Below are positions 9,873 through 37,698 of a DNA stretch of 64,000 nucleotides, one piece after another (within the stretch, counting starts at the first letter, position 1; every line of letters starts with the position of its first letter). A program made the position numbers and the translations under genes. The notes beneath the pieces were generated by a model. The model saw only the letters and a list, made by a program, of their open reading frames with translations, did not search any database and was not told where the DNA came from. Origin of the DNA: an uncultured delta proteobacterium (GTDB lineage Bacteria > Desulfobacterota > Desulfomonilia > Desulfomonilales > Desulfomonilaceae); the NCBI GenBank assembly GCA_963789265.1, contig CAWBKB010000007.1, positions 192,001 through 256,000 of the forward strand. Reading direction: 5' to 3'.

Positions 9873-10000
9873 CCCACACTCCTGAACTGCACGCATGAAT
9901 TCTAGTATTTGTCAGTTCAGAGGATATGAGAAGCGCGTTAGGGTGTCAAGAACCATCTAAGGCGACCTGGTAATCCCTCAGTTACGGGCGGCAAAAGATT

Positions 10001-10085
10001 GTCATTGCGAGCGAAGCGAGGCAATCTCATTTCTGGAGAGCGTCCAGAACCGAGATTGCTTCGTCGCTTTGCTCCTCGCAATGAC
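10001..10085. repeat. Palindromic element of the GTCATTGCGAG...CTCGCAATGAC type
   Basis: GTCATTGCGAGCGAAGCGAGGCAATCTC ... GAGATTGCTTCGTCGCTTTGCTCCTCGCAATGAC, long imperfect inverted repeat. Confidence 0.85.
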
Positions 10086-10290
10086 ATGAGAAAGAAAGTT
10101 CCCCGCACATACAAATGATTCCGGTGAACCGTTCCGTCTTACGTTCTTTGCCTCTGATTCTCGATGCTGTTGCGCGGGTGACTGAATTTGGTGTAACGTA
10201 CTCTCAATTAAGAAAGGCGCACTTCCTTGCTGGTTTACTGAGGTCCCACCTTTCGCGCACGAGGCTCCTTAATGGCCAGGCACCGCAGAG

Positions 10291-12693
10291 ATGATTGAGC
10301 GAACGATAAAGACGAGCATATACGCGCACATATCAGTGTGGGCCCTAATATTTTGCTGCTTGTACCTCACGAGCCTTCACAGCTATCTATTGTTCCACAC
10401 GCTGGTAGAGCTATTCAGCATCGCGGTGGCGTGGGACATATTCTTCATCGCCTGGAACTCACGCCGACTGTTGGCCAACAATTATCTTCTTTTCCTGGGG
10501 ATTTCCTACCTCTTTGTCGGTTGTATCGATCTGGCGCACACCATGGCCTACAAAGGCATGGGCATTTTTGCGGCATCCAGGTCCGACTTGGCCTCTCAAC
10601 TCTGGATTGCGGGTAGGTTTGTCCAAAGCTTCTCTTTGTTGGCTGCACCCTTTTTTCTAGGGCGACGGCTAAGACCGTATGTAGTCATTGCCGCCTTTTC
10701 ACTGGTTTGTGCTGCGCTATTCGCATCCATCTTCTACTGGAAAATTTTCCCCGACACCTACCTGGACGGTGTTGGGCTCACAGGGTTCAAGATCTGGAGT
10801 GAGTACGGCATCTGTCTGATTCTCGTTGCAGCCGCACTGCTGCTGTACAAACACAGGGACCGGTTCGATCCAGGTGTGTTGAAGCTGTTGATCGGCTCCA
10901 TGTGTGTCACTGTGGCCTCGGAATTGGTGTTTACCGTATACGTGGACGTGTACGGCTTTTCCAATCTAGTCGGTCATTATCTTAAGGTCATTTCCTTCTA
11001 CCTGGTCTACAGGGCAATCATACAGACCGGCTTGAATAAGCCTTACGATCTGATGTTCAGGGAACTTAAGAAAGGGCAGGAAGCGCTGGCCGCCGGCCTT
11101 GCCGATCTGCAAAGGTCCAGTGCGGAGACAAACGCTTTGCTCGTCGCCTCACGAGCGCTTCTGAAGCATCGCGATTTTGCCGCATCGGCACGGACAATCT
11201 TTGATGCGTGCAAGGAGGCCATTGGAGCCAAGTCCGGGTACATTGCACTGTTGGATAGCCACTGCACGGATAATGACGTTATGTTTCTTGATTCAGGCGA
11301 ATTGCCTTGCAGCGTCGATCCCAAGCTCCCTATGCCGATTCGAGGTCTTCGCGCGGAAGCGTATCGTACTGGAGAGGTAGTCTGCGAAAACAACTTCTCC
11401 GAGAGCAAATGGGTGAAATTCCTCCCTCACGGCCATGTCTGCCTCGAAAACGTTATGTTCGCTCCGCTGATGCTCGAGGAAAAAGCTGTGGGCCTGCTCG
11501 GTCTGGCAAACAAACCGGGAGGCTTTACCGATAATGACGCCCGCACAGCCGCTGCTTTTGCCGAGTTCGCTTCCATCGGCCTGCTTAATAGCCTGACCCT
11601 CGAATCCCTTGCGCACAGTGAAGAGCGTTTTAGGACAGTTGTAGAAACTGCGAATGATGCTATCATATCCGTTGACAGCCACGGCAACGTGGTTTACTGG
11701 AACAAAGCCGCCGAGCATATCTTCGGCTATTCGGCCAAGGAAATTGTGGGCGAGCCCCTCTCCCTGATAATTCCTGAACAATTCCGTGCAGCCCACCAAA
11801 ACGCATTGCAAGATGTAGTCTCAAACTCGAAATCGCACCCTCCTGCAAGGACTGTTGAGGTAGCGGGTCTGAGAAAAGATGGCGAGGAATTTCCGGCAGG
11901 ATTGTCAATTGCAGCTTGGGAAACAAGAGAAGGGAGATTTTTTACCGGTATCCTGCGGGACATCACTACACGCAAGCGCGCCCAAGAGGCTTTGCAGAGC
12001 ACATTGGCCGAACTGGAACGCTCCAATGCCGAGTTGCAGCAATTTGCCTATGTCGCGTCACATGACCTGCAGGAGCCCCTGCGCATGGTATCAAGTTACG
12101 TTCAACTTCTCGACCGTCGCTATAAAGACAAACTTGACAAAGATGCAGCCGAATTCATGGGCTACGCGGTCGAGGGTGCCCGACACATGCGGCGACTCAT
12201 CAACGGCCTGCTGCAATACTCCCGTGTAGGAACACATGGAAAGGCCTTCGAGATTGTTCCCTGTGAGAAGGTATTGGATACGGCATTAGCCAACTTGCGG
12301 ATGTTGCTCGCCGAATCGGGCGCCCAAGTTACCCGTGATCCGCTCCCGACAGTGAATGCGGACTTTACGCAACTCCTGCAACTCTTTCAAAATCTGATCG
12401 ACAATGCTTGCAAATTTCGCGATGATGATCCTCCGCAGATTCACATCTCCGCAAGGCAAGCGTATAATCAATGGCTTTTCTCGGTGCGTGACAACGGGAT
12501 AGGAATTGATCCGGAGTATGCGGAACGGATATTTATTATATTTCAACGCTTGCACAATAGAGAAGAATTTCCCGGTACCGGCGTAGGATTGGCGATTTGC
12601 AAGAAGATTGTCGAGCGCCACGGCGGCAAGATTTGGGTTGAATCGGAACCGGGTGCGGGTACCTACTTTCTGTTTCACCATGCCCGGAAATGA
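10291..12693 (+). CDS. Sensor histidine kinase MASE3-GAF-PAS-HisKA-HATPase (last codons probably frameshifted; corrected stop ~12715)
   Basis: SYLLFHTLVELFSI..HTMAYKGMGIF (MASE3 membrane domain); [18 protein letters not shown]-box; DNGIGI and GTGVGLAI G-boxes. Confidence 0.92.
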   Translation: MIERTIKTSIYAHISVWALIFCCLYLTSLHSYLLFHTLVELFSIAVAWDIFFIAWNSRRLLANNYLLFLGISYLFVGCIDLAHTMAYKGMGIFAASRSDLASQLWIAGRFVQSFSLLAAPFFLGRRLRPYVVIAAFSLVCAALFASIFYWKIFPDTYLDGVGLTGFKIWSEYGICLILVAAALLLYKHRDRFDPGVLKLLIGSMCVTVASELVFTVYVDVYGFSNLVGHYLKVISFYLVYRAIIQTGLNKPYDLMFRELKKGQEALAAGLADLQRSSAETNALLVASRALLKHRDFAASARTIFDACKEAIGAKSGYIALLDSHCTDNDVMFLDSGELPCSVDPKLPMPIRGLRAEAYRTGEVVCENNFSESKWVKFLPHGHVCLENVMFAPLMLEEKAVGLLGLANKPGGFTDNDARTAAAFAEFASIGLLNSLTLESLAHSEERFRTVVETANDAIISVDSHGNVVYWNKAAEHIFGYSAKEIVGEPLSLIIPEQFRAAHQNALQDVVSNSKSHPPARTVEVAGLRKDGEEFPAGLSIAAWETREGRFFTGILRDITTRKRAQEALQSTLAELERSNAELQQFAYVASHDLQEPLRMVSSYVQLLDRRYKDKLDKDAAEFMGYAVEGARHMRRLINGLLQYSRVGTHGKAFEIVPCEKVLDTALANLRMLLAESGAQVTRDPLPTVNADFTQLLQLFQNLIDNACKFRDDDPPQIHISARQAYNQWLFSVRDNGIGIDPEYAERIFIIFQRLHNREEFPGTGVGLAICKKIVERHGGKIWVESEPGAGTYFLFHHARK

Positions 12694-12796
12694 TACTCAG
12701 ATGCGGCGACAATAGAGCTTAAATGGTAAACCGGCCTGGACGGCACCTCCTGTCGGAACAGCGCGACTACGCACAATTCCGGGTGTTCCGGACACA

Positions 12797-13444
12797 ATGA
12801 GGAAAATGAGTACGCCGATGGATCTACTAGTGAAGGCATTGCTTGACGGCGATCAGATTCAGGCTGTTGCCGCAGCCAGAAGCCTTCGTGACACGGGGGT
12901 CGAACACGAGCGCATGGTCACTGAGGGGATAGAAGTGGCGATGGGGCAATTGGACACCAAGTGCACGATGGAGCAGTTCAACTTACTGGAAATCATGCTT
13001 GTGGGGCGTGCAGCGATGGGAGTCATAAAGGAGCTCTTTCCAGCGGGCACACCTTCACTTCGGACTAAGGGAACGGTTGTGCTGGCCAGTCCGGAGGGGG
13101 ACGTACACGACTTGGGGAAGAACGTCCTCAAGGCAGTATTGACGGCAAAAGCCTACCATGTCGTGGATTGTGGCAAGGATTGTCCCGTAGAGAGACTGAT
13201 TAGCGCAGCGGAACAAGAAGGAGCGCTTGCTGTCGCAGTCAGCGGCTTGATGACCAGCCTGATCCCACAGGTGCGACAGATCAGGGACAAAATGACTAAA
13301 CGGGGACTCGGTCACATTAAGGTGATGGCCGGCGGAGCAGCATTGAAGCAAGCTTCCGCAGAGAGTCTAAACGTCGATTTCGTAGCTCAGACCGCTTTCG
13401 ATGGCGCACGCTATCTTGATCGGATAGCCGGAGGTGGGCAATGA
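12797..13444 (+). CDS. Corrinoid (cobalamin-binding) protein, MtaC/MtbC-like
   Basis: Helical cap domain plus EGDVHDLGKN (DxHxxG), SGLMT and MAGGA base-off/His-on B12 motifs. Confidence 0.9.
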   Translation: MRKMSTPMDLLVKALLDGDQIQAVAAARSLRDTGVEHERMVTEGIEVAMGQLDTKCTMEQFNLLEIMLVGRAAMGVIKELFPAGTPSLRTKGTVVLASPEGDVHDLGKNVLKAVLTAKAYHVVDCGKDCPVERLISAAEQEGALAVAVSGLMTSLIPQVRQIRDKMTKRGLGHIKVMAGGAALKQASAESLNVDFVAQTAFDGARYLDRIAGGGQ

Positions 13445-14454
13445 ACAGCGTCGACCGGATCAAGGCCGCGGTGAATTTCGACCCGCCCGATTACGTGCCG
13501 GTGATCGCTCAGGTTTTCGGCCATGCCGCGACTTTGGCTGGGATTCCCCTGGGCGATTATGTCAAAAGTGGCAAACTGTTGGCGCGTTGTCAGATTCAAG
13601 CCCTGAAACACTATGACTACGATGCGGTCTTTGCTTTGATGGATGCGAATGTTGAAACTGAGGCCGCGGGCTCTGCCCTGACCTATCGAGCTGACCGGTA
13701 TCCAAGTGTCGCGACTTATGCTTTTTCGGATGGAACTAACCTGGACAGAGCAGAGGTACCTGATCCGCACCGAGCGGGGCGCATGCCGGAATTGCTGGAA
13801 GCCGCCGGGATTCTGCGCCGAGAGGTGGGCGATGATGTGCTTGTTGTGGGCTGCGTGTTAGGACCCATGACCCTGGCAACACAACTGCTCGGCATCGAAG
13901 CGACCCTCTATTTGGCCGCGGACGATCCGGAACGATTCTCCTGTTTGCTTGACTTTGCCACCGAAATTGCCATTCGGTTCGGCATTTCACAGATCGAAGC
14001 CGGCGCGCATCTACCCATAGTTTTCAACCCGTCGGCCTCGCCCGCTGTTATTCCGTATCAATTCTTCCGCGAAATTGAACTGCCTCGTCTCAGGAAAGTC
14101 TTCGCAGCCTTTAAGCTGGCTGGGGCTGCGGCCAACTGGCTTCATGTTGCGGGGCCGGCCGAGCCTATCCTATCCCTTTATCCTCAGGCCGGGGTGGACA
14201 TCGCGAATATTGATTACGAGGTTGATCCGGAGGATGCCCGGAGAGCGCTTCCACAGACTTGCCTCAATGGCAACATCAAACCCCTGGCCTTTGTTGAGGC
14301 GACTCCTGATGTGATTGCCGATGAGTCTTCCAGATTGATGAATCTTTTCGGAGATCGTGGAGGCTTTATCATGTCGTCCGGTTGTGAGATTCCGCCGGAA
14401 TCAAGACCTGAAAATATTTCCGCTATGGTTGCGGCAGCGAGAGAGAGAATGTAA
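13441..14454 (+). CDS. Uroporphyrinogen decarboxylase superfamily protein, MtaA/CmuA-like methylcobamide methyltransferase
   Basis: VETEAAGS, PDPHRAGRMP, GPMTLA, LNGNIKP, GFIMSSGCEIP; ATGA-coupled to the corrinoid protein. Confidence 0.85.
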   Translation: MNSVDRIKAAVNFDPPDYVPVIAQVFGHAATLAGIPLGDYVKSGKLLARCQIQALKHYDYDAVFALMDANVETEAAGSALTYRADRYPSVATYAFSDGTNLDRAEVPDPHRAGRMPELLEAAGILRREVGDDVLVVGCVLGPMTLATQLLGIEATLYLAADDPERFSCLLDFATEIAIRFGISQIEAGAHLPIVFNPSASPAVIPYQFFREIELPRLRKVFAAFKLAGAAANWLHVAGPAEPILSLYPQAGVDIANIDYEVDPEDARRALPQTCLNGNIKPLAFVEATPDVIADESSRLMNLFGDRGGFIMSSGCEIPPESRPENISAMVAAARERM

Positions 14455-14491
14455 CTCAGTGAGCTTTAAAGCAAGCCACGCGAAAAGTTGA

Positions 14492-14577
14492 TTTCCCCTC
14501 CTTTTTAATGGGAGGCAGAGGAGTTTTTTGGGATAACCTATTGAAAATCCCCCTTTAGAGAAGGGGGACTTTGAGGG
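14492..14577. repeat. CCCCCTTT..AAGGGGG-type palindromic repeat
   Basis: TCCCCCTTTAGAGAAGGGGGA hairpin; related copies at 46062-46104 and 51430-51534. Confidence 0.6.
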
Positions 14578-14649
14578 CCTGACGGGACGCCTGAGGTGCC
14601 CACGACCGAAGCAACCAGCTCTAAATTAATGCCTGTGGGAGGTAATACT

Positions 14650-16261
14650 CTGCCGACCCTGACCATCAAATCGGAAAAAATCGAACGTCGTATCCCGTTT
14701 GACCCCGGAGCATCCTTGCGTGAAATCCTGGACGAGGCCGACGTGCGGGTTCGTGCAGGATGCAAAGGGACTGGTGCATGCGGTCTGTGTCTCGTGCGGA
14801 TTGAAGCCGGACGAGTCGGTGCACCGGGGCCGAATGAGAATACCCATCTGGATAGCTCACAACTTGCTCAGGGCATTCGATTGGCCTGCCAAGTAATTCC
14901 CGAGCAAGATTTGCAGATTGTGATCCTTGCCCCAGCTCCCAAAGCGGATTGGAAAAGCCTTCCCCAAGGAGACAGACGACGTAACGGTCGAGGCCGCGCC
15001 TTCCCACTGGGAGATGCGCCGACAGACGTGAAAGAACCTTATGGTGTGGCAGTGGATCTGGGCACAAGTCACCTAAGTCTTTCGCTGCTCGATCTTGCCG
15101 GCGGCGAATGCCTGGCAGGGCGTTATGGCCCCAACCCTCAGATGCTTTTCGGTTCAGATGTCATGACACGGCTTATCACCGCGTCTGAGTCTTCCCAGCA
15201 GGCGCAGGTGATGAGCCGACAAATCGTCATAGCAATAGGCGAAGCACTGTTGGATATCGCCTCCAGAGAGGGGATCGATCTTCAACGAGTGGTGAGGCTT
15301 GCTCTGGTCGGAAACACTGCAATGCTGGCACTGTTGTCAGGGCGAAATTACAGTCGGTTGATTCAACCGAGCCACTGGACCAAAGCCGTCGATTGTCTGC
15401 CTCAAAACACGGAAACGTGGGCTGAAGCTTGGGGCATTCATCCCAAGGCGAGCATACAGGTCATCCCGCCTCTGGCCGGCTTTGTGGGCTCCGATTTGCT
15501 GGCGGGCGTGGTTACGACCCGCCTGACTGAAGACGGAGTCGGCTGCCTTCTCATTGATTTCGGCGCCAATTCCGAGATAGCCCTGTGGGACGGACAAGCC
15601 TTGTGGGTCACCTCTGCCGCTGGGGGGCCTGCCTTTGAACGGAGTGGCATCGAATGCGGACTGCCCGCGGAAACGGGAGCCATTTATAGGGTACAGCGTG
15701 CAGCAGAATGGAATGCTTAATTTTGCAGTCATCGGCGACCAACAAGCGCGCGGCATCTGCGGTTCGGGCTTGGTAGATCTGATTGCCAACCTGGTCAGGA
15801 CAGGTAGATTGACTAACATGGGCCGGTTCACACCGTCTGTTCCGGGAAACGAATTTACGCTCGTGCGAGGTGAGCCGGACATCATTCTGACCAAGAGGGG
15901 TGTAGACGTTTTTCAGCGCGGCAAAGCAGCCATTGGGGCAGGCGTGCATGTATTGCTGAAGCAGGCGGGCATGAGGTACAAGGATTTGCAGCGAATTTGC
16001 GTCGGCGGCGCTTTCGGCAGTTTCCTGGATATCGCCAACGCCCAGGAGATCGGGTTGCTGCCCAAGATTCAACCAGAGCTTGTGGAGCTTCACGGAAACA
16101 CGGCATTGGCCGGTTGCGAAGACGCGATACTGTCACACTTGGCTTCTCAACGTCTCGCGAACCTCAGAGATCGCCTAAAAGTTATCAATTTATCGCAGTG
16201 TCTCAATTTTGACGACATATTCTTGGAGCATTTGTACCTCCAACCGTCGCAAGGAGAGTGA
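14650..16261 (+). CDS. Reductive activator of corrinoid proteins (RACo/RamA-like; 2Fe-2S plus ASKHA ATPase); apparent 1-nt insertion near 15693; start uncertain
   Basis: CKGTGACGLC..RLACQ ferredoxin; AVDLGTS, NPQ..FGSDVMTR, GFVGSD, IDFGANSEI, SAAGGPAFE, then GICGSGL, GGAFGSFL, GNTALAG in ORF 15635-16261. Confidence 0.9.
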
Positions 16262-16264
16262 GCT

Positions 16265-18004
16265 ACGGATACCGGATCTCCAGGACAGGCGAATTATCTT
16301 GATGCCTTTATCAAGACCGCCCAATACCTCGCCGGCTTGACGATCCAACAGGATTTGTGGATCGAGACGGGAAAACTTCTGGTCAATTTTTGGGGAGCGG
16401 ATCTAGGCGCCTTTGGAGAACGCCTTACAAACGGGGAAATAGTAATTCGCCCTTGGATCTTCTCGGATGAGTTTTCCAAACGAATGGACTTTGCATCAGA
16501 GGCCCAGGAAAGTGTCGCCGAGGTACTGGATGGTGGTTTCCTAACATGGCGAATAATTTCGTCTTCGCCGGAAACGCTGGTGGTAGCCTTCTTGCCGGTC
16601 ACCGGGGAAAACCGGGTCATGAGAGTGTTGCTGGTGGCGCACAGGATGTCTGGACCACCTCCAAGAGATCTGCTCAATGTGTACCTAGCTCTCGCAGGTC
16701 TTGTGGGAACAACAGCCGAGCGTCTGGCTTCGGAAGCGGAACTGAGGAAACAGCGCCGGCATCTCGAGATACAGATTGCTCAACGTAAGAGTGCGGAAGA
16801 GGCTCTGCGGGAAAAAGAACAGTTTCTTACCAATATTTTTGAGAGCATCCAAGATGGTATAAGCATACTAGATAGCGAGCTGAACATTGTACGAACCAAT
16901 TCGACAATGGATCGATGGTATTCAACCTCAATGCCTCTCGTTGGCAAAAAATGCTTTGAAGCATACCATAATGCAAATCACCCTTGTGAAAAATGCCCTG
17001 TTGCTCAGGCTCTAAAGACCGGCCAAACCACCTTCGAAATTGTTCCCCGAGAAGGAGCGAAAGGTCATATTGAAGGATGGCTCGAACTGTATGCTTTTCC
17101 TCTTGTAGCTCCAGGCTCGGATCAAGTCATGGGTGTAATCGAATACTTCCGGGATATCAGTGACCGCAAGAAAGCAGAAGAAGCGCTACGTACCAGCGAA
17201 GAGCGCCATCGGGCTGAGCTTGAGCAACGAATCAAAGAACGCACCTCCGAGTTACATGTAGCCAATGAACGATTAAGGGATGAAATTACCGAGCGGAAAC
17301 GGACAGCATCTGAATTGGAACGGTCTAACGCCGAGTTGCAGCAATTTGCTTACGTCGCGTCCCATGACTTGCAAGAGCCGCTCCGCATGGTCTCAAGCTA
17401 CGTGCAGCTTCTCGATCGCCGCTACAGAGACAAACTTGATGAGGACGCGGACGAGTTTATGGCTTACGCTGTTGACGGAGCCAAACGCATGCAGGGTCTC
17501 ATTAATGGTCTGCTGCAATATTCCCGTGTAGGAACTCACGGTAAGGCTTTCGAGTCTGTTGACTGTGAAACGGTCCTGGATAAGGCGTTGGCCAACTTGC
17601 GGATGTTGCTCGCCGAATCGGGCGCGCAGGTCACCCGAGATCCTCTCCCCACAGTGGATGCGGACTTTACACAACTCTTGCAACTGTTTCAAAATCTGAT
17701 CGACAACGCTTGCAAATTTCGCGATGATGAGCCCCCTCAGATTCACATCTCCGCCGGGCAGGCGCACAATCAATGGCTCTTCTCAGTGCGTGACAACGGG
17801 ATAGGGATTGATCCGGAGTATGCGGAGAGAATATTTGTCATATTTCAACGCCTGCACAATAGAATGGAATTTCCGGGAACCGGTCTCGGGCTGGCAATTT
17901 GCAAGAAGATCGTTGAGCGCCACGGCGGCAAAATTTGGGTTGAGTCCCAAGACGGCAAGGGCACAACCTTCTACTTCACAATCCCGGAAAGAAAGGCATG
18001 CTGA
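16265..18004 (+). CDS. Cytoplasmic sensor histidine kinase (GAF-like, PAS, HisKA, HATPase); start uncertain (ACG 16265 or TTG 16337)
   Basis: No TM segments; PAS with [35 protein letters not shown]. Confidence 0.88.
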
Positions 18005-18453
18005 TGTACGGTAGAAGCAACATCCACGCTATCGAGATCCTTCTGGTTGAAGATAATCCCGGTGATGTGCGCCTCACTCGAGAAGCGCTCAAAGATGGCA
18101 AGATAGTCAATAATTTGCACGTGGCCGAGGACGGCGTAGAAGCCCTCGCATATCTCAGGCGTGAGGGAAAGTTTCACGATTCGGTACGGCCGGAACTCAT
18201 TCTCCTGGACCTCAACCTCCCCAAGAAAGACGGCCGGCAAGTTTTAGCTGAAATCAAAGCGGACAAGACCTTGAAACGCATCCCCGTCGTGATCTTAACC
18301 TCTTCGGAGGCTGAACAGGACATTGTCAAGAGCTATAATCTTCACGCAAATTGCTACGTAACGAAGCCCGTCGACCTCGATCAGTTTATTAGTGTAGTAA
18401 AATCTATTGAATATTTCTGGTTATCGGTCGTTAAGCTTCCGCCGGAGGAATGA
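17998..18453 (+). CDS. Single-domain response regulator (Rcp1/CheY-like)
   Basis: [29 protein letters not shown]. Confidence 0.93.
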
Positions 18454-18454
18454 A

Positions 18455-20510
18455 ATGAGAGACGGCCCACTCCGAGTGCTACTGATCGAAGATAATCCCG
18501 GGGACGTCCGCCTAATCAAAGAAATGCTGGTTGAGGCCGGAAAGACGAACATAAGCATTGAATCCGCCGACACCTTGTCAGCCGGCCTGGACCTGCTTAC
18601 CACAGGCGATTTCGACGCAGCCCTGCTGGATCTCGGATTGCCCGACAGCCAAGGTCTCGCCACCTTGGGCAAAGTCTATGTCAGAGCCCCCGGCATCCCT
18701 ATCGTGGTTCTAACAGGCCAAGAGGATGAGGCCGTGGCGCTTGAAGCAGTAAAACAAGGAGCCCAGGATTATCTCGTCAAGGGAGAGGTGGACGAAAAGC
18801 TTCTCGTTCGGTCCATTCACTACGCGGTTGAACGGCGGCGACTCCTGGCCGAGTTGGAAATCAGCCGGGCTAGTTTCACCAGCATAGTGGAAAAGAGCGC
18901 TGACGGCATATTCGTGCTGGGAAACGACAGCTCCGTGCTCTATGCCAATCCGGCGGCGACTGAGCTGATGGGCAAGTGCGGAGAAGATCTTCTGGGCACG
19001 TACTTTCCCCTTCCCGCTGTCCCGGGCGAGAGGACGGAATTGGAAATAGCACACGGTGAAGGCGCCGCAGGCACCGGTGAAATACGAGTGAGACGCACCG
19101 ACTGGAATGGAAACCCTGCATTTTTGACCGTGTTGCGTGACATTACCAAGCGCAAACGAGCAGAGGAGGCTTTGCGCCAAAGCGAGGGAAGATTTCGTGC
19201 CATTTTCGAGAGCGCTCAGGACACCATGTTCATTAAGGATCGGCAATTGAAATACACGATGGTAAATCCTGCAATGGCGAAGCTCTTGAACCGCCCTACC
19301 TCTGAAATAGTGGGCCGCACCTCTGAAGAGATCTTTGGGCGGCAGACCGGTAAACACCTCAGAGAGGTAGACCTGCGCGTTCTGGACGGACAGACCATCG
19401 AAGAAGAGCGGGTGCGACCGATAAACGGCATCCCCCTTACCTTTCACGATGTACGAGTCCCTTTGCGAGACGGCACCGGGGTGATTGTCGGCGTGTTTGG
19501 AATAAGCCGCGACATAACCGGCCGCAAGACGGTGGAGCTTCCACACCGACAAGCTGCCGACGAATACCCGTCAAAGGCCATGAAGGCGATCATGAGGCGA
19601 GTCAGCTTCGCGGCGGAAACTGAATCCACAGTATTGCTGCTGGGAGAGAGCGGCAGCGGCAAAGACTTCCTGGCCAGATACATCCACGATCACTCCAAGC
19701 GCGCGGACGGTCCCTATTGGGCCATCAACTGCGCTGCGGTCAGCGCTCAACTTGCGGAATCGGAGCTTTTCGGCCACGAACGCGGTGCTTTCACCGGAGC
19801 GCAAAGCCGTAAGCGAGGACATTTGGAACTTGCCGAAGGCGGAACTCTGCTACTGAACGAAGTCGGGGAACTCCCCCTCCCCTTGCAGGCGAAACTGCTG
19901 ACTTTTCTTGATACCAGGCAGTTTACCCGTGTGGGCGGAGAAAAGAACATCACTGTCAATGCAAGACTCATCGCTGCCACGAATCGGGACTTGGAGAAGG
20001 AAGTCGACGCCGGATGCTTCAGACAGGACCTTTTCTATCGCCTGAATGTGCTGAGTGTCACGGTTCCTCCGCTAAGGGAGAGGCGTGAAGATATCCCAAT
20101 ACTCATTCGAGAGATGATGACGCTACTTTGCACGGACATGCAGCTCCACGAAGTTCCTACTATCGACGCGGCGACCGTGAACGTGCTGAAAAGCTACGAC
20201 TGGCCGGGGAATGTGCGAGAACTTCGCAATGTGCTGGAGAGGGCGCTGATGTTGTCGGGCGGAGAGTGTATTAGCCTCGCGGGCCTTGGATTGGATACAA
20301 ACAATGGAAATGCCAAAGACTGGTCTCTCACGGTATGTTTCCCCTCTGGAGAATCCCTGAATGACATTACTCATAATGTGAAGCGTTCTCTTGTCACAGA
20401 GGCGCTTAGGCGCTCGGGAGGCAGCAGACAGGGAGCATCACGCTTGCTGGGTATTTCGCGGGTACTCACTCAAACATTACATGAAGGCATTGGGCCTGTC
20501 GTGGGATTGA
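18455..20510 (+). CDS. Sigma54-dependent activator REC-PAS-PAS-AAA+-HTH (apparent 1-nt insertion near 20461; ORF track runs to 20557)
   Basis: Receiver LLDLGLPDSQG; GESGSGK; ESELFGHERGAFTGA; FRQDLFYRL; WPGNVRELRN; Fis HTH ASRLLGISR then YSLKHYMKALG in the shifted frame. Confidence 0.92.
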
Positions 20511-20515
20511 GTCAC

Positions 20516-20713
20516 GTGGCGCAGGCTTTCCAGCCTGCGTTTTCTCGATTCGGATGATAGCAGACTGGAAAGTCTGCTCCACAGGTATAAGAGCTGGCCG
20601 CACAAATAACATTCCATGTCTCGCGGGCTCTGCCCGCAAACTGGCTCTATTTTACTGTTATAGTCGAGGCAGAGCCTCGCGATAGGCATTCCCAGGCAGA
20701 GCTTGGGAACGAG
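20516..20713. repeat. REP pair plus partial CCCAGGCAGAGCCTGGGAAC-family element
   Basis: GTGGCGCAGGCTTTCCAGCCTGC..CAGACTGGAAAGTCTGCTCCAC; TTCCCAGGCAGAGCTTGGGAACGAG. Confidence 0.7.
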
Positions 20714-20949: not shown

Positions 20950-22374
20950 ATGGGACAAAGGAACCTAGTGTTGAAGAGGATGTGCATGATTTTGCCGTCA
21001 GGTCTTGAACAGATCGAAGCTGAACAGCTCAGTCTTTTTAGGGTGGACAGACAGACGTATGGTCCACCGGAAAAGGACAAACCTTCGGCCTTCAGCGACC
21101 CTGCGTTTGCCAACAACAAGATAATGCCTATTCATCGATGGGTACCTTGGATAGCCGGATTCTCTGCTGATTTCGTTCGGAACGCTTTATCTAACTATTT
21201 GAATCGGAAATCAACCGTCCTTGATCCGTTTGCTGGAGTTGGTACAACTGTGGTCGAAGGGGTTATGGCGGGTCATAATGCTATAGGTTTTGAGATCAAC
21301 CCTTACGCGGCTTTGGCGTGTCGCGTCAAGGTCAACGCATCCAGGATGTCTGCAGATGCTTTAAGGAACTGCATTTTACGGTTCCAAAATTTCTATAAGC
21401 AAAAAGTCTCTGGCGCATACACTCCCGTTAGCTCCCCCCCGTTAGGCTTCCGGACCAGAGCCTCGTTTTATAGCCCGGATGTATTACACAAGGTCCTGAC
21501 AATTCAAGATTTTATAAACCTTATCGAAGAGGATGATCTTCGAGACCTGTACAAGCTCGCCTTCGCTTCCACGATGGTCCGGTACTCGAATTATTCATAT
21601 GAGCCAAGCTTGAGCAGGCGTGTAAGCGCTGGGAAAAAGGATATCGACGACTTTCCTGTAGCCCGGACGATTTTGGAAAAACTGACGGAAATGCTGGAAG
21701 ATGTTGTCTGGTGCCAAGCTCATCCCGCCAAGGATCGGGTTTTCTCCAGAATCATCAATGATTCCTTTTTCCAGTATGAGAGGCACTTGGAGGCCGAGTC
21801 GGTTGATCTGATAATTACGTCGCCACCATACCTGAACAACTATCATTACAATCGGAATACTCGACCACACTTATACTGGTTAGGATACGTCAATAGTCCC
21901 AGAGACATGATACCCTTGGAGCAAGCAAACTTCGGCAAGTACTGGCAAACTGTTCGAGATGCTGAGAGAGTCGACTTGGACTTTTCCGCGCCGGATACCG
22001 ATCTAGCCGAACAGATTGAATTTCTGAGGACTCTTAATCCTGAAAAAGGAGTGTACGGTGGCAATGGCTGGGCCAACTACGCTGCATCATACTTTAATGA
22101 TTGTTACAAGTTTGCAAATGGCATCCGCTATGCGCTCAGACGCGGAGGTACGGCCTTAGTTGTCATCGGAAACAGTATATTACAGGGGACATTGATCGCA
22201 ACAGATCGGCATTTCGGCAAAATAGCCGAGTCCATCGGACTGGAATTGACCAATATTCACGTGCCGCGACCAACAAGAGTCGGAAATAGCATCATACAAT
22301 CGGAAGTCCGTGTAAAGAAAGCTAAGAGCTCTCATCAATTGTATGAGGCTGTAGTAGAAATCAGAAAACACTAA
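20950..22374 (+). CDS. Site-specific DNA amino-methyltransferase (probably N4-cytosine)
   Basis: IHRW..W.AGFS; motif I VLDPFAGVGTT precedes catalytic ITSPPY. Confidence 0.88.
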   Translation: MGQRNLVLKRMCMILPSGLEQIEAEQLSLFRVDRQTYGPPEKDKPSAFSDPAFANNKIMPIHRWVPWIAGFSADFVRNALSNYLNRKSTVLDPFAGVGTTVVEGVMAGHNAIGFEINPYAALACRVKVNASRMSADALRNCILRFQNFYKQKVSGAYTPVSSPPLGFRTRASFYSPDVLHKVLTIQDFINLIEEDDLRDLYKLAFASTMVRYSNYSYEPSLSRRVSAGKKDIDDFPVARTILEKLTEMLEDVVWCQAHPAKDRVFSRIINDSFFQYERHLEAESVDLIITSPPYLNNYHYNRNTRPHLYWLGYVNSPRDMIPLEQANFGKYWQTVRDAERVDLDFSAPDTDLAEQIEFLRTLNPEKGVYGGNGWANYAASYFNDCYKFANGIRYALRRGGTALVVIGNSILQGTLIATDRHFGKIAESIGLELTNIHVPRPTRVGNSIIQSEVRVKKAKSSHQLYEAVVEIRKH

Positions 22375-22986
22375 TCACGTAAAGTGGCCTAGCACCTCCT
22401 CAACAATTCTTTCCAGCGACGGTGCGGTTCCGGTCAAGCGATCCGCCCATGGTCTTCCTGGATGGAGAACATCCCACTCCGATTTTGCTTGATTGTACCT
22501 CCCCGCTCCAGGATCATGATTGCCGAAGCCATCGACAACCGTATTCCAGATAGGGGCAAATCTTCTAATAAGTTCTGCCTCAACCGCCCCGATCAGGTCA
22601 CTTTCAATGCCTCGAAGAATCATGAACCTGCAACGGAACTGGACGACCTGCAGGTTTGATGCCTGTGCAATGTTCCGAGCATGTTGTTTCAGTCTATTGA
22701 ACAAGGTTGAGCCTTCGCTTTGAGCAGTCTTACCGGTTCGCCATCCAGCAGGGACCGTTTTGCCGACATAAATTGGCTGTGCAGACGAATCCCGATTGAG
22801 GTCGGCCAAAGCGGCGTACAACTCAAAATCACCAGCGTAGTATAAAGCATAAATCCCGCTCCCTGAGAATCGATCAGTCGGTGGTAATTCGTGGACAGGG
22901 GTATGAGTAAAAAAGCGGATGGCTTCATCTACTACTCTTTGGAATTGAGCAGACCTGAAAATATGTAAAGCCAAGTTTACGGGCAT
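22375..22986 (-). CDS. Eco29kI-family (GIY-YIG) restriction endonuclease
   Basis: GSGIYALYY..PIYVGK..L..RL.QH..E..LI..F.PIWNTVVDGFGNHDPGAGRY.Q..S.WDVLHPGRPWA; stop codon abuts the MTase stop. Confidence 0.92.
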   Translation of the reverse strand: MPVNLALHIFRSAQFQRVVDEAIRFFTHTPVHELPPTDRFSGSGIYALYYAGDFELYAALADLNRDSSAQPIYVGKTVPAGWRTGKTAQSEGSTLFNRLKQHARNIAQASNLQVVQFRCRFMILRGIESDLIGAVEAELIRRFAPIWNTVVDGFGNHDPGAGRYNQAKSEWDVLHPGRPWADRLTGTAPSLERIVEEVLGHFT

Positions 22987-31415: not shown

Positions 31416-32417
31416 ATGAACCAAGACCATGATGAGACGTACCATATGAGTCGTAATCCCAAAAGGGATTTGTTTCCTTATACAGAGTTGGCGACATCAC
31501 GACCGGACGCGGAACCATACGAATTGTCAGATGACTTGCTAAATTGGCTGGCTTGGGAATTTGTGGAACCTGACAAGTGGGGTTGGGTATTTAGAGGTAT
31601 CAGAAAGCACTACTATCCGCTGAAGAGTGTGCTGGACAGAAGAATAGACAACAGAAGAATATTTGGAAGTGCGCACTCCTACTCCGAAATTGATAGACAG
31701 ACCGCCGAGGGTTATCTCCTCAGCCAGTTCAAGAAAGGGGCACATCATTTTATTGAGGCTTCGATGGTCCCAGACGACAACAACACCTTAGAATGGTTAG
31801 CGCTAATGCAACATTACGGGACTCCCACACGGCTACTCGACTTCACGCGTTCGCCGTACGTAGCTTGTTTTTTTGCTCTAGAAGAAATCTCTACTAAACA
31901 AGCACAACCAAAAGACACAATAAAGGAAGATAAGAACGCTGCTGTTGAAAATTGCGCAATCTGGGCTGTTGATACCCTCTGGTTGATAAGAAACAGTTTT
32001 CGCCGTATTGCCAAGAAGTTTCCAGGATATACAGAGGACAGTCTCTTGGATTCCGGGTTCATGGCCAAGAATTTCGATACACTTTCTGTGAAGTACCAAA
32101 AGCCTCTGATTTTACCAATTGTACCGTCGCGATCAAACCCGAGACTCCTAGTTCAACAGGGCCTTTTTCTGTGTCCAAGCATAGCTGAGGGAGGTCTTGA
32201 GAAGAACCTCCTATCCTACAACGATGACACGCAGGATATGGATCAGCACGTGTGCAAAATTATAATTGAAGGCCGAATTCGGACAGAAGTCCTATCTGAA
32301 CTTCGTCTCATGAATATCAGCCGCGCAAGCCTTTTTCCGGATCTGCAAGGATATGCAAGCTCACTATCTCACGAGCTAGAATACAGATCATCAGATGAGA
32401 TAAAACGGTTGAGGTAG
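31416..32417 (+). CDS. FRG domain protein
   Basis: WVFRG, WLALMQHYGTPTRLLDFT.SPYVA.FFA, NPRL..QQGLF, LFPDLQG. Confidence 0.92.
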   Translation: MNQDHDETYHMSRNPKRDLFPYTELATSRPDAEPYELSDDLLNWLAWEFVEPDKWGWVFRGIRKHYYPLKSVLDRRIDNRRIFGSAHSYSEIDRQTAEGYLLSQFKKGAHHFIEASMVPDDNNTLEWLALMQHYGTPTRLLDFTRSPYVACFFALEEISTKQAQPKDTIKEDKNAAVENCAIWAVDTLWLIRNSFRRIAKKFPGYTEDSLLDSGFMAKNFDTLSVKYQKPLILPIVPSRSNPRLLVQQGLFLCPSIAEGGLEKNLLSYNDDTQDMDQHVCKIIIEGRIRTEVLSELRLMNISRASLFPDLQGYASSLSHELEYRSSDEIKRLR

Positions 32418-32582
32418 ATCTCAGCACGAGTGGCAGTGCCAGACTTACAAGTGAATGAATTCCGGCTTATGACCGATGAGCATCTAGGGGGGCCTGACGA
32501 CCGCATCGACGCCGGCACACGCAACAGCGATGCGAGCGTGCGAAGCCCAACGTGATCTTGACAAATCGAAAGGAGATCGACG

Positions 32583-32984
32583 GTGAGCGCCAAGCTTGGG
32601 CAAGACCCGGACGCTTTGCTTCGAGATACTGTGCGTAAGGACCAGATCGAGTACCGTAAGTGGATCGTGAGCTTGTCCATTTTCGTTCTAACGGTTTCGC
32701 TTGGCCTGATTGGCCTCCTGGTGAAGGCACATCCTCTCCGGTACAAATGGCTCTTAGTTGTCGGTTGGCTATTCTTGGGGGCCTGTATTTTCTTCAACTG
32801 GTTAATCATCAAGAGACTTGTCGGCATTTCGCTTGTCGCAGCCGCATCGCGTGAAGAGCCTAGCTTTGGCAACCTCCTCACGATTCTTACCAAGCTAGAT
32901 TTGCAGTTGTACGCTCTGGTTCAGAACCTCGCCTTCCTTGTAGGTGTGTTCGCCGTGGGCCTTGGTTTTGTCCTGAATGTCTGA
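32583..32984 (+). CDS. Small multi-pass membrane hypothetical protein
   Basis: GTG start with SD AAGGAG; three hydrophobic helices. Confidence 0.7.
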   Translation: MSAKLGQDPDALLRDTVRKDQIEYRKWIVSLSIFVLTVSLGLIGLLVKAHPLRYKWLLVVGWLFLGACIFFNWLIIKRLVGISLVAAASREEPSFGNLLTILTKLDLQLYALVQNLAFLVGVFAVGLGFVLNV

Positions 32985-33353
32985 ATATGAAGCTGGAGTA
33001 ATGCCTATTAAGTTGACATTGGAGCCACATCCGTTAGAGATTAGCCAATGCACGTCCGTGAGAATCGACACGCCTTTCTCGGTATCATTGGTGAGGTGAT
33101 GCGATCAGAGGGACACTGAGAGAGGACGGCAAGAACGGATCAATGCCAATAAAGTGGACTAGGGCGTGAAGCGAGTATGAAACGTCAAAGAGGCCCAGCG
33201 TGTCATTCCAGCGTGCTCGGCAATCCGTGGCCTAGTCGGAATTGGCGTTGTTTTCCGGCCCCTTAGACTGCTCCAACCGCGCCGCTGAATTGGGCGCTGA
33301 GCAGATTCAGTCGCCACTGAACGTGAGTGACTGTGGGTGTGAAGGAAGTCAAC

Positions 33354-34313
33354 ATGGCATCTGCAGATTGGGTACCGCTGGTAGGTGAGTTCGATGTCGT
33401 CGAGGGGGAAGTGCAATTTCATGGCAAACGTGTGCCCTTTGTCGAGCCGCCTGGAGGATTGGAGACGGACCAGAAAGATCAACCGGCTTTCGGGATCATC
33501 CTGAGCAGTTTGGCGCTTGCTGATGGCAAAGTCAGCGCCGAGGTGGAATTCGCGCAGGTCACGGCCCATTCGATCTGCGAATTGGCCATCGTTTACGATG
33601 TCAGCAGCCGCCACTTTGTCACTGCTGGCTTGGGGGGCGAAACATGGGCGATGTACGGCATTCGCGAGTTCGGAGGCCCAAGAACGGGCGGACAGGGATG
33701 GTGGGGCCATCTTGCAGGCGGGGACCGCGCGAATCTTAAACCGGGCCGGGTATATCGAGTCGCGGTTCAGCTTCGGGGTGCATTCGTGACGCTTCACGTT
33801 GACGGCGTTGCCGTTGGAACCGCACAGGTTAGTTCCCCAATGGGTCGCGCCCGTCAAGTCGGATTTTTGTGCAGAGCGGACCACCTCATCAGCATACGCA
33901 ACTTGACGGTCGAAGGCACTAAGCCGAAAGCATTCGTAGTGATGCAGTTTGGTGAGGGGTATGACGAGGTATATGAGGATGTTGTAAAAGAGGTCTGCAA
34001 ATCCTACGAAGTCAACGTGCTGCGGGCTGACGAAGTGTCAGGGCCCGGTCTGATCATTAGCGATGTGGTTCGCGAAATCGCCGCCTCGCAACTGATCATT
34101 GCTGATATCACCCCCGAAAACCCCAACGTCTACTTTGAGGTGGGATACGCACTCGCGCTCGGAAAGCCGACTGTCCTTCTCGCACAGAAAGGCACCTCGC
34201 TGCCTTTCGATGTTGCCGGGTTTAGGGTGCTGTTCTATGAAGACACGATCGGCGGAAAGAAACGGCTGGAAGAGGGTATGAGAAGGCATTTGGCCGCCAT
34301 TCTTGCCGAGTGA
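33354..34313 (+). CDS. Beta-sandwich (ConA-like) domain fused to a nucleoside 2-deoxyribosyltransferase-like domain
   Basis: C-terminal AFVVMQF..RADE..IIADIT.ENPNVYFEVGYALALGKP..LPFDV; N-terminal half rich in predicted beta strands. Confidence 0.75.
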   Translation: MASADWVPLVGEFDVVEGEVQFHGKRVPFVEPPGGLETDQKDQPAFGIILSSLALADGKVSAEVEFAQVTAHSICELAIVYDVSSRHFVTAGLGGETWAMYGIREFGGPRTGGQGWWGHLAGGDRANLKPGRVYRVAVQLRGAFVTLHVDGVAVGTAQVSSPMGRARQVGFLCRADHLISIRNLTVEGTKPKAFVVMQFGEGYDEVYEDVVKEVCKSYEVNVLRADEVSGPGLIISDVVREIAASQLIIADITPENPNVYFEVGYALALGKPTVLLAQKGTSLPFDVAGFRVLFYEDTIGGKKRLEEGMRRHLAAILAE

Positions 34314-34322
34314 TCGTGCTCA

Positions 34323-34470
34323 GGGAATTTCGGCTACACCATGCTCAATTCCCTTTGGAGATTCCTTTCCGTCCGAGTTTGCGCCTATGCAAAACTCTGG
34401 TAAGCTCGTTTATTATGAAATCTTCCGTTCTTGTGTCAACAATTAAGTATGGAGTGCCTTGAACCCTCCC
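34323..34470. mobile_element. Non-autonomous REP-bounded element carrying a RAYT 3' tail
   Basis: GGAATTTCGGCTACACCATGCTCAATT ... AATTAAGTATGGAGTGCC; interior reads EDFI..L.RVLHRRKLGRKGISKGN on the minus strand, homologous to 41176-41319. Confidence 0.65.
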
Positions 34471-34674
34471 AAGGGAAGACCAGCTTTGGTCTCCGGTTTT
34501 CAATTCAAGGCCTGATCCCAATTCAAGATTGCCTTGCGTCAAAGAAAAGTATACTTTTTGAACAAGGTTGCGCTTCAGGAACCTTGAAGATAGAAGTAGT
34601 CAAGAAGAAGCTGTCTTTGAGAGACTCAACAATTTTGATGAGCGCCGAAGCAAGCGATAGAAAGGAGACCGCGC

Positions 34675-34890
34675 ATGCAGATGATTCTTGAAGCCACATA
34701 CAGAAACGGCGTTCTTGTTCCCGACAGGAGCCTGGGCCCCGAAAAAGAAGGCAAGAAGTTTAAGCTCATCGTTGTCGAAGAGAAGGAATTAGAGGCCAAA
34801 CGGGACCAATTCTTCCAGTTTGTCAAGGATCACAGGTTCAGTCTGCCCGAAGATTTCCGGTTCAGCAGGGACGAAATCCATGAAAGATAG
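34675..34890 (+). CDS. Antitoxin, AF2212/DUF104-like
   Basis: ILEATYRNGVLVP; C-terminal FSRDEIHER overlapping a PIN gene; SD AAGGAG. Confidence 0.8.
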   Translation: MQMILEATYRNGVLVPDRSLGPEKEGKKFKLIVVEEKELEAKRDQFFQFVKDHRFSLPEDFRFSRDEIHER

Positions 34891-35308
34891 GATCCTGATC
34901 GACACGAACCTCTGGATTTAACTCTATGCACTAGATCCGCAGGCCAAACGCAATAGGATCGAAGAGTTGGTCCAACAAAATTTCGCGAAAATCATAGTGA
35001 GCACGCAGATTCTGGGAGAATTTTATCACGTTGTAACAAGAAAAGGGCTCCTGACACGCGAATCTGCTAAGGATATTATTATCGAGATGGTAGCGACCTT
35101 TCCGGTGTCGGAAATCGGAACAGCAAATGTCTTGAAGGCCCTCAAGATTCAGGAAATCTTTCATTACTAGTATTGGGACAGCCTAGTCATGGCGACAGCA
35201 ATCCTTACCGATTGCGATATCCTTTATTCAGAGGACATGCAGCACGGTCAATCTGTGCAAGGGAGAACCAGGATCATCAACCCATTTCTCGAAGTACCCG
35301 AAATCTGA
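34880..35308 (+). pseudogene. PIN-domain (VapC-like) toxin with two nonsense codons
   Basis: MKDRILIDTNLWI*LY..STQILGEFY..HY*YWDSLVMATA..LYSEDMQHG..INPF; TAA 34919 and TAG 35168 in frame. Confidence 0.85.
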
Positions 35309-35311
35309 AAA

Positions 35312-35412
35312 TCTCCGTCAAGGTCGTCTCTAGACTTTCCTTCCGCAAAGTGCACCGCCTCGCAGGCCGCGTCGAGCATGTGTCTCAGCCGAATCCGGTC
35401 ATCCTCCCGCAT
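35312..35412 (-). pseudogene. Truncated HEPN/DUF86 (HepT-like) toxin, N-terminal ~32 codons only
   Basis: MREDDRIRLRHMLDAACEAVHFAEGKSRDDLD, then runs into the antisense of the PIN gene; no RxxxxH motif. Confidence 0.75.
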
Positions 35413-35707
35413 ATTGCACCTCAGCCTCAGCAATTACTTTGTCCCTGAAATAACGACTCAGCTCTTGAGGGGTCCGAAGATCCACCTTGCGACCGCCGAG
35501 ACCGTCTGAGAGTTCTTGCTCCATATCAGCAAGCTCAAAATAACCCGGCGTGCTCCCTTGCTCGAATTCGACGAGGAAATCCAGGTCGCTTTCAGCTCCG
35601 AAATCGTCGCGTAGATACGACCCGAAAATGGATAGCTTCCTGACATGGTGTCGGCGGCAAAAGTCTTTGATGAAATCACGAGGAATGACCGGACGCTCTT
35701 GGTTCAT
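35399..35707 (-). CDS. Minimal nucleotidyltransferase (MntA-like antitoxin)
   Basis: LSIFGSYLRDDF..ESDLDFLVEF..GRKVDLRT..LSRYFR. Confidence 0.9.
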   Translation of the reverse strand: MNQERPVIPRDFIKDFCRRHHVRKLSIFGSYLRDDFGAESDLDFLVEFEQGSTPGYFELADMEQELSDGLGGRKVDLRTPQELSRYFRDKVIAEAEVQYAGG

Positions 35708-37574: not shown

Positions 37575-37698
37575 TTCAAATAAGCTAAACCCCGTTAATT
37601 ATCAAATATCTGCGTTAAATCAACTCCATAACTACTTTTTGTCTTATCCGCTTCACGTGTGGTTTCACGTTTTCCATTTGATGAAAGGAGAATAATGC

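Follow-up and report, generated by a model that had tools for sequence, protein, structure and literature searches.

A 64,000-nucleotide stretch of DNA from an uncultured delta proteobacterium of the Desulfomonilaceae (GenBank assembly GCA_963789265.1, contig CAWBKB010000007.1, positions 192,001 to 256,000 of the forward strand; hereafter, the window) carries a conserved unit of four genes, encoding a corrinoid protein (CP), an MtaA-like protein that lacks a zinc-site cysteine (MT), a RACo-type reductive activase and a sensor protein, here the histidine kinase HK2. We put at about 0.55 the probability that the unit (positions 12797-18004) is a self-contained signaling cassette, in which the cobalt state of CP would be set by MT and RACo and read by the sensor. 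The chances are about even that such cassettes constitute a previously unknown class of bacterial and archaeal sensor, in which the state of an organometallic cofactor (alkylated by the zinc-less MT with an environmental methyl or alkyl donor, or oxidized or photolysed, and reset with ATP) would pass by way of a new GAF-type domain to kinases, cyclic di-GMP enzymes or PP2C phosphatases. The genes and their motifs, their linkage in both directions, the variety of outputs, the fusions of RACo with the N-terminal domain of the sensor and the lack of conserved catabolic partners are direct observations. The components of the unit are listed below; all gene coordinates here and in what follows are window positions.

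12797-13444, + strand: CP, corrinoid protein of the MtaC type, 215 amino acids (aa) (B12-binding domain, 73 bits; DVHDLG motif)
13441-14454, + strand: MT, MtaA-like protein of the URO-D fold, 337 aa, full-length (Pfam URO-D, 226 bits)
14596-16261, + strand: RACo-type reductive activase, read here in two frames, 14596-15720 and 15635-16261 (Fer2, RACo_middle and RACo_C_ter domains)
16262-16801, + strand: N-terminal sensor domain of HK2 (hereafter, N-domain), predicted GAF fold (predicted structure and family alignments)
16262-18004, + strand: HK2, cytoplasmic kinase with N-domain, PAS_4, HisKA and HATPase_c; first canonical start TTG at 16337 (Pfam and open frame)

These genes belong to a run of seven co-directional genes on the + strand within 10291-20557, and scans of open reading frames (ORFs) and domains recovered all seven that an earlier reading of the DNA letters (hereafter, the sequence-only reading) had placed there. 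The other three encode a second kinase (HK1), a response regulator consisting of a REC domain only and a sigma54 activator. The start of MT overlaps the stop of CP by 4 nt, and a pattern scan found no terminator-like sites on the + strand between 12693 and 20557. The statement that the cluster holds no substrate-specific methyltransferase (MT1, MtaB/MttB type), folate enzyme or transporter was borne out, as a domain scan detected no MT1, pterin-binding enzyme or transporter either in 10291-20557 or among 21 further ORFs scanned in window positions 1-38622.

Conservation of the Cassette in Both Directions

A scan for CP in one genome per species yielded 21 loci, in 18 of which (L005-L022) the order CP-MT-RACo-sensor is intact. 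Record titles assign these 18 to Desulfomonilaceae, Syntrophobacteraceae, Thermodesulfovibrionales, Oscillochloris, Candidatus Fermentibacteria, Acetobacterium and Dongiaceae. The same order holds at CP identities of 57-93%; the nearest relatives of CP carry the label Desulfomonilaceae, and the CP of Desulfomonile tiedjei is 81% identical to that of the window. Of the remaining three loci, L023 is a divergent pair whose CP is 42% identical, and L024 and L025 are decayed remnants. Decayed or truncated cassettes (L024, L025 and L077) were seen in Acetobacterium paludosum, a Lamprocystis metagenome-assembled genome (MAG) and one metagenome contig.

In the reverse direction, a metagenome scan for the N-domain gave 47 loci, of which 46 are genuine (L081, a 28-residue chance match, was dropped). 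Cassette genes stand directly upstream of the N-domain, as far as the contigs reach, in 44 of the 46, and the upstream content is distributed as follows.

CP, MT and RACo (one truncated): 21 metagenome loci
MT and RACo, contig ends upstream: 3 metagenome loci
RACo only, contig ends upstream: 11 metagenome loci
CP and MT, no RACo: 6 metagenome loci
MT only, contig ends, no RACo: 3 metagenome loci
No cassette gene within 6 kb upstream: 2 metagenome loci (L060 and L073)

RACo is found in 35 of the 44 linked loci. Both sets of loci, the CP-seeded and the N-domain-seeded, were found with family-specific peptide patterns. The sequence-only reading had proposed to check whether orthologues of CP with its unusual KCTMEQFNLLEIML cap sit beside this GAF-kinase family, and they do so in both directions (18/21 and 44/46). 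The contrary picture that it had sketched, metabolic operons with an MT1 and a sporadic kinase linkage, was not seen: across 99 flanking ORFs of the 18 loci we detected no MT1, no pterin-binding methyltransferase (MT2) and no recurrent transporter. Nor is any methyl acceptor enzyme or DNA-binding regulator conserved beside the cassette among these ORFs; a lone MerR gene occurs on the opposite strand in L011 only, and no MerR/CrtJ partner is conserved. The flanks of the 18 loci share nothing.

Full-length N-domains are present in two of 401 sampled genomes of the phylum (the window genome and G273, which also has RACo upstream), and in 8 of 70 genomes of the family, representing 4 of 26 genera, with a single match each. 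Across 36 loci, the matrices of pairwise identity for CP, for MT and for the N-domain correlate with r 0.85-0.88, a descriptive measure in which the rows share ancestry. Such co-variation in identity is what one would expect of genes inherited and transferred as a unit, and since the gene arrangement recurs across phyla, we do not attribute it to chance. On the other side of HK2 and upstream of CP, conservation ends early: only the closest relative, L005, shares HK1, the REC-only protein and the sigma54 activator. These three genes are lineage-specific additions outside the four-gene unit. Thus, of the proposal that a corrinoid module is embedded in a signaling operon, the linkage of cassette and sensor is conserved, but the wider operon is restricted to the window and L005.

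The N-Terminal Domain of the Sensor

The part common to the proteins encoded downstream of RACo is, according to alignments, the first ~175 residues, i.e., the N-domain. Pfam gave no match to HK2 residues 1-165 of the window protein, and GAF_3 was matched weakly in L018 only (E 1.6e-4, below the cut-off). An AlphaFold model of the domain (mean confidence, pLDDT, 88.7) has GAF domains as its top Foldseek matches, with probability 1.00 and TMq 0.54-0.63 (Nlh1, NifA and histidine kinases). In all, 77 PDB structures match at E<=0.001, and cyclic AMP-binding and ligand-binding GAFs are among the fold matches. The GAF domain that the sequence-only reading had assigned to HK2 is therefore upheld by predicted fold and absent from the Pfam annotation of the window protein. 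We regard the N-domain, on the basis of the structure prediction, as a GAF domain of an undescribed family and as the hallmark of the cassette. Residues Q21, Y22 and F93 are invariant, and G92, P112, N139, Y141 and L142 nearly so. Methylation of a Cys and covalent heme were both rejected for this domain, which has no conserved Cys and, in the window copy, no Cys at all.

A profile search of 1.84 billion cluster representatives recovered 445 members of the N-domain family at E<=1e-3 and 220 at E<=1e-30. The domain is N-terminal in 146 of the 150 best representatives. Domain scanning of 75 of these 150 (every second one) found HATPase_c in 53, HisKA in 38, HisKA_3 in 5 and HisKA_2 in 2, together with GGDEF (7), SpoIIE (3), HD (1) and REC (18). 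Outputs in the genome loci likewise comprise HisKA-HATPase with or without PAS, hybrid kinase-REC, GAF-GGDEF (Oscillochloris) and PAS-GGDEF (Acetobacterium), the last exemplified by a complete cassette with GGDEF output in the cultured Acetobacterium tundrae DSM 9173 (L022). Because it is recombined with so many output domains, we interpret the N-domain as a sensory input module.

The Corrinoid Protein and the MtaA-Like Protein

CP contains a Rossmann B12-binding domain (PF02310, 73 bits) with the base-off/His-on motif DxHxxG (DVHDLG), of which D102, H104 and G107 are invariant in a 36-sequence alignment. Residues 12-202 align with TIGR02370 at 105.9 bits (cut-off 215.3), and the closest PDB structure is MtaC (2i2x_B, E 1.9e-21). 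The helical cap PF02607 was not matched in the window CP at E<=0.01, and it is precomputed for some orthologues. CP has an unusual cap motif, KCTxEQFNLLEIML, and the cap pattern CT..FNLLEIML.GRA is invariant across the 36 sequences. Three Cys residues are also invariant in the 36 cassette CPs: C56, C125 and C129, the last two within 'DCGKDC'. Leu and Val replace C125 and C129 in the two solved CPs displayed for comparison (MtaC 2i2x_B and MttC 7xcn_M). These Cys residues may act as a redox-active pair or bind a metal.

The URO-D domain (PF01208) spans MT residues 5-335 with 226 bits, and the protein aligns over its full length with the MtaA structure 4ay7 (E 1.2e-25), the closest solved structure. 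Its scores against the curated models are low: 151.2 bits for TIGR01463 (mtaA_cmuA; cut-off 235.4) and 116 for the MtaA equivalog (cut-off 400). At the zinc-site position, MT has 'LHVAG' where MtaA 4ay7 has 'LHICG', so that the pattern is HxA...C instead of HxC...C. The His-x-Cys...Cys residues, whose positions we located through the 4ay7 alignment, are what we take to be the zinc ligands of MtaA. Among 18 MTs (that of the window and 17 orthologues), the Cys of HxC is missing in all and the distal SGCE Cys is kept in all, while 16 carry H[IVT]AG; the His of the motif is also replaced in the MTs of L015 and L023. Given the loss of the HxC Cys and NCBIfam scores below the MtaA/CmuA cut-offs, MT is not a canonical zinc-dependent thiol methyltransferase. 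The identification as MtaA-like made in the sequence-only reading thus stands as regards the URO-D fold and the match to 4ay7, and has to be narrowed as regards canonical MtaA function.

MT is the most conserved part of the cassette, with a mean pairwise identity of 64% and 56 invariant columns in 36 sequences. In L015 (Thermodesulfovibrionales), CP and MT form one 557-aa ORF (9980-11653). The MT gene is broken into two frames in L007 and L021, both from MFD-series MAGs, and the RACo gene of L007 is also broken. The frame breaks in L007 and L021 look like assembly indel errors.

The Activase, Its Fusions and the Start of HK2

The window RACo has the 2Fe-2S Cys pattern and the ASKHA motifs DLGTS, DFGANSE, GNTAM and GICGSG. 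Alignment with L005, L006 and L008 shows that one extra base at 15694/15695 shifts its frame, and a short-read contig of a public sequencing run (X1) that is otherwise identical lacks the base at 15695 (one contig, depth 2.9). In 17 of 18 related loci, one ORF of 531-605 aa encodes the whole of RACo. Since the extra base is absent from the relatives and from this contig, we read the split as probably an assembly error, and since the 2Fe-2S and ASKHA motifs are intact, we do not consider the gene a pseudogene. The sequence-only reading had recognized RACo correctly, and its description is corrected here to a gene read in two frames. Taken together, the DxHxxG motif of CP, the 2Fe-2S and ASKHA motifs of RACo and the invariant columns of MT make the parts of the cassette look functional.

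In 11 of 19 longer relatives of the cassette RACo, the activase is joined to a kinase or PAS-GGDEF(-EAL) output. Two of these fusions, P0271 (hhalign probability 99.95%) and P0278 (99.2%), were tested, and in both the N-domain directly follows the ASKHA domain of RACo. A further protein, P0165, consists of a Fer2 (2Fe-2S) domain, the N-domain and a kinase, with no further part of RACo. The fusions surfaced only with RACo as the query; a word-based search with the N-domain returned one long protein and no RACo fusion. The junction of RACo and N-domain in the window, which is interrupted by a single in-frame TGA, is the split form of such a fusion.

The frame of HK2 is open from the stop of RACo (TGA 16259-16261) and encodes 580 aa. 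A conserved N-terminal helix of the sensor is encoded ahead of the first canonical start, TTG 16337, in frame with the RACo TGA, and the stretch encoding it differs from four relatives mostly at third codon positions. No ATG, GTG or TTG precedes this helix in the window or in L005; at one position in this region, L006 and L007 have ATA and L008 has ATG. Near the HK2 start, five loci share 'GGAGAGTGAGC[TC]ACG' without variation. HK2 could begin at a non-canonical start or by re-initiation, or the TGA could be read through to give a RACo-kinase fusion, and activase and kinase may be made as one chain through read-through or re-initiation at TGA 16259-16261.

Comparison With Known Corrinoid Systems

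The window genome (6.06 Mb) contains four ordinary corrinoid clusters of the catabolic (O-demethylase) type elsewhere, at C7:396997-398456 (L001), C1:1290360-1291828 (L002), C4:248802-250282 (L003) and C1:2224319-2230571 (L004). Each has a URO-D-type MT1, whose match is confined to the C-terminal half of the profile, and a CP bearing the B12-binding_2 cap. Three include a pterin-binding MT2, two an MFS or ABC transporter and two a GntR regulator, and one adjoins a separate, intact RACo of 593 aa beside a DUF1638 protein. The window cassette stands apart from these four clusters.

Among published systems, the same trio of a UroD methyltransferase, a small MtaC-type CP and an ATP-dependent RACo-type activase occurs in the Odm/Vdm/Mtv O-demethylases and in the chloromethane system CdmBCA (PMC13222342). 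Those systems have a pterin-binding methyltransferase II (MT II) and serve catabolism, whereas the cassette has no MT II nearby in 18 loci. The cassette MT is a 337-aa full-length URO-D core, unlike the N-terminally extended methyltransferase I of the catabolic systems; the cassette CP differs from Odm/Cdm-type CPs in its cap and its three invariant Cys residues, and a sensor gene always follows the cassette. That 2026 report states that the zinc-free UroD-type CdmB, CdmC and an activating enzyme suffice in vitro for the conversion of Co(II)-CP to CH3-Co(III)-CP with chloromethane, and calls the regulation of such methyltransferase systems 'largely unexplored' (PMC13222342). By this precedent, the chemistry of the cassette triad would be enough to record a substrate signal on the cofactor.

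The proteins MtaA, MtbA, MtsA and MtpA have the same size and fold as MT and are paired with an MtaC-like CP, but the HxC...C zinc triad of the MtaA type is HxA...C in the cassette MTs. The cassette holders are bacteria, in which an acceptor of the coenzyme M type would not be expected. The sequence-only reading had assumed that catabolic methyl transfer always needs a separate MT1. This premise is too strong in view of MtsA/MtsB and MtpA/MtpC, both of which work with one MtaA-like enzyme. For MtpA/MtpC, an MtaA-like enzyme and a CP are reported to be catalytically complete (10.1101/548461).

The mec cassette for anaerobic dichloromethane catabolism (MecA-J) also brings together a CP, MtaA/CmuA-family enzymes, RACo and a sensor kinase (10.1101/2021.08.30.458270). 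Unlike the cassette of the window, it has ten genes, including an MtrH-type methyltransferase, further methyltransferases and a transporter; the mec kinase senses through PocR and is paired with a DNA-binding regulator, and the mec proteins are highly abundant catabolic enzymes (10.1101/2021.08.30.458270). In CarH and AerR, a B12-binding-domain protein is likewise the sensory element of a signaling pathway. Those photoreceptors use light-driven Co-C cleavage of bound adenosylcobalamin or methylcobalamin and are not known to involve a methyltransferase or reductive activase, whereas the cassette CP is of the methyl-transfer type and is accompanied by enzymes able to set and reset its state.

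GAF kinases genomically tied to CP/MtaA-type methyl-sulfide genes also occur in Methanosarcina (MsmS and RdmS). They reportedly bind heme covalently on a Cys and regulate the expression of catabolic fused enzymes, whereas the cassette N-domain has neither a conserved Cys nor a conserved His. We met no description of the cassette in full-text literature searches, which covered subscription journals thinly, so that one may have been missed. We consider the cassette not previously described, its nearest published relatives being catabolic (mec, Cdm and the O-demethylases), along with the cobalamin photoreceptors.

Proposed Mechanism and Alternatives

In the signaling scheme that we favor, CP would be a dedicated sensing element. 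MT would load a methyl or alkyl group onto the Co(I) form of CP or unload it, and RACo, with the help of ATP and its own 2Fe-2S cluster, would re-reduce any CP that had lapsed to Co(II). The GAF-fold N-domain would then read the Co(I), Co(II) or alkyl-Co(III) state, either directly or via a RACo-CP complex, and this reading would switch the output, which is HK2 here and a diguanylate cyclase, PP2C phosphatase or HD domain elsewhere. In the window genome, HK2 and HK1 would phosphorylate the REC-only regulator and the downstream sigma54 activator. We infer the flow of information from CP to the sensor, the contact partner of the N-domain and the identity of the signal.

If this wiring is correct, the leading candidate for the signal, at slightly less than even odds, is a methyl or alkyl donor, for instance one of the methyl halides or some other small methylated compound. 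An oxidant or the redox state is a somewhat less probable but serious candidate; light would be improbable, and so would any other signal.

Several points weigh against this scheme. Kinases are often encoded beside enzymes they regulate, and the GAF pocket alone could bind a small molecule. The missing MT1 is not decisive, because systems of an MtaA-like enzyme and a CP (MtsAB, MtpAC) are complete catabolic units, and RACo cannot be an obligatory contact, because it is absent between MT and the sensor in 9 of 44 loci. No Cys or His is conserved in at least 90% of the N-domain alignment, so that direct ligation of cobalt or heme by such residues is disfavored. The cassette is rare and patchy, though spread across phyla, and neither a sigma54 promoter nor another regulated target was seen near it. 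When CP, MT and the N-domain (residues 1-165) were folded together from separate alignments and with no controls, the score was 0.00, which speaks neither for nor against binding.

One alternative is nested within the favored scheme and keeps its wiring, but takes the signal to be the loss of the active cobalt state: oxidants (O2, N2O or NO) or light would turn Co(I) or methyl-Co(III) into Co(II), the tight complex of RACo with Co(II) CP would be reported by the N-domain, and MT and RACo would restore the resting state. RACo stays stably bound to its corrinoid protein when the latter is in the Co(II) state. The 11 RACo-output fusions fit such a role, with the N-domain directly behind RACo in both that were tested, as do P0165, which keeps only the 2Fe-2S domain ahead of the N-domain, and the presence of RACo in 35 of 44 linked metagenome loci. 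The record titles of most holders name anaerobic lineages, which would benefit from sensing oxidants, and two phototrophs are represented, by the Oscillochloris holder and the decayed Lamprocystis copy. Light as the trigger is at odds with the labels of most holders, which are those of non-phototrophic lineages. The conservation of MT (64% identity, 56 invariant columns) fits a specific substrate better than housekeeping re-methylation, and RACo is absent from 9 of the 44 loci. We regard this version as unlikely, at perhaps one chance among several.

A second alternative, to which we give a similarly low standing, separates chemistry from signaling. CP, MT and RACo would form a stand-alone methyl-transfer or dehalogenating system for detoxification or scavenging, and the GAF pocket of the sensor would bind the same substrate or product. 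Small-molecule binding is common among GAF domains, and the fold matches of the N-domain include such GAFs. An MtaA-like enzyme and a CP can suffice catalytically, as MtpA/MtpC indicate (10.1101/548461), and the mec cassette joins a CP, MtaA/CmuA-like enzymes, RACo and a sensor kinase as well (10.1101/2021.08.30.458270). However, the mec kinase has PocR and stands among MtrH-type and other methyltransferases, unlike the kinase of the cassette (10.1101/2021.08.30.458270). No conserved methyl acceptor enzyme, transporter or DNA-binding regulator adjoins the cassette, outputs of the GGDEF, SpoIIE and HD types would give no direct regulation of an operon, and the covalent fusions of RACo with the N-domain are hard to explain by a common ligand alone.

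That the linkage has no meaning, being a product of hitch-hiking on mobile elements or of biased locus collection, is highly improbable: both sets of loci were seeded with family-specific patterns, the spread is patchy and some flanks carry IS66 (L017) or phage-type or nuclease genes (L012, L014 and L015), but the order is kept at 57-93% CP identity across several phyla with entirely different flanks, and the linkage holds in both directions and extends to gene fusions and overlapping or abutting genes.

To our knowledge, corrinoid methyl-transfer chemistry is so far known only from catabolism, methionine synthesis and acetogenesis. If the signaling scheme is true, this chemistry has been recruited for signal transduction, and two-component and cyclic di-GMP signaling gain a new input principle, a cofactor state set by enzymes and reset with ATP. 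It would also define a new family of GAF-type sensor domains with ~220 clusters at E<=1e-30, provide anaerobes with a possible sensor for methyl halides, methylated compounds or oxidants, and offer a starting point for the regulation of methyltransferase systems in acetogens and sulfate reducers. The cassette is directly testable, given that the cultured A. tundrae DSM 9173 has a complete copy.

Neighboring Genes

The remaining features of the signaling gene cluster in the window are as follows.

10291-12693, + strand: HK1, MASE3-GAF-PAS-HisKA-HATPase kinase (Pfam/NCBIfam)
12440-12468, + strand: sigma70-like promoter match at 11/12 positions, inside the 3' end of HK1 (consensus match only)
17998-18453, + strand: REC-only response regulator (Pfam)
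18407-20557, + strand: REC-PAS-PAS-sigma54 AAA+-HTH_8 activator (Pfam/NCBIfam)

The match at 12440-12468 is a possible promoter of the cassette. Searches around the cassette for GG-N10-GC, in a relaxed and a strict version, gave no sigma54 promoter ahead of HK1 or CP. The transmitters of HK1 and HK2 (DHp and catalytic domains; 11950-12690 and 17275-18000) are 85% identical over 242 aa, and the sensor parts of the two kinases are unrelated. This likeness points to a recent duplication or gene conversion, and because the transmitters are so similar, HK1 and HK2 probably feed shared regulators, namely the REC protein and the sigma54 activator.

Between the sigma54 activator and a gene of the metallo-beta-lactamase fold, positions 20950-22986 encode an N6_N4_Mtase DNA methylase and an Eco29kI-type restriction endonuclease. 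This restriction-modification pair looks inserted, since in L005 the activator directly precedes the metallo-beta-lactamase-fold gene. Farther downstream, a phage-like or defense-like region (31416-38622) contains an FRG-domain protein and a nucleoside deoxyribosyltransferase-like ORF, an SU10-type major capsid protein (36357-37574) and an ORF (37699-38622) whose C-terminus resembles the nuclease of a contact-dependent inhibition (CDI) toxin.

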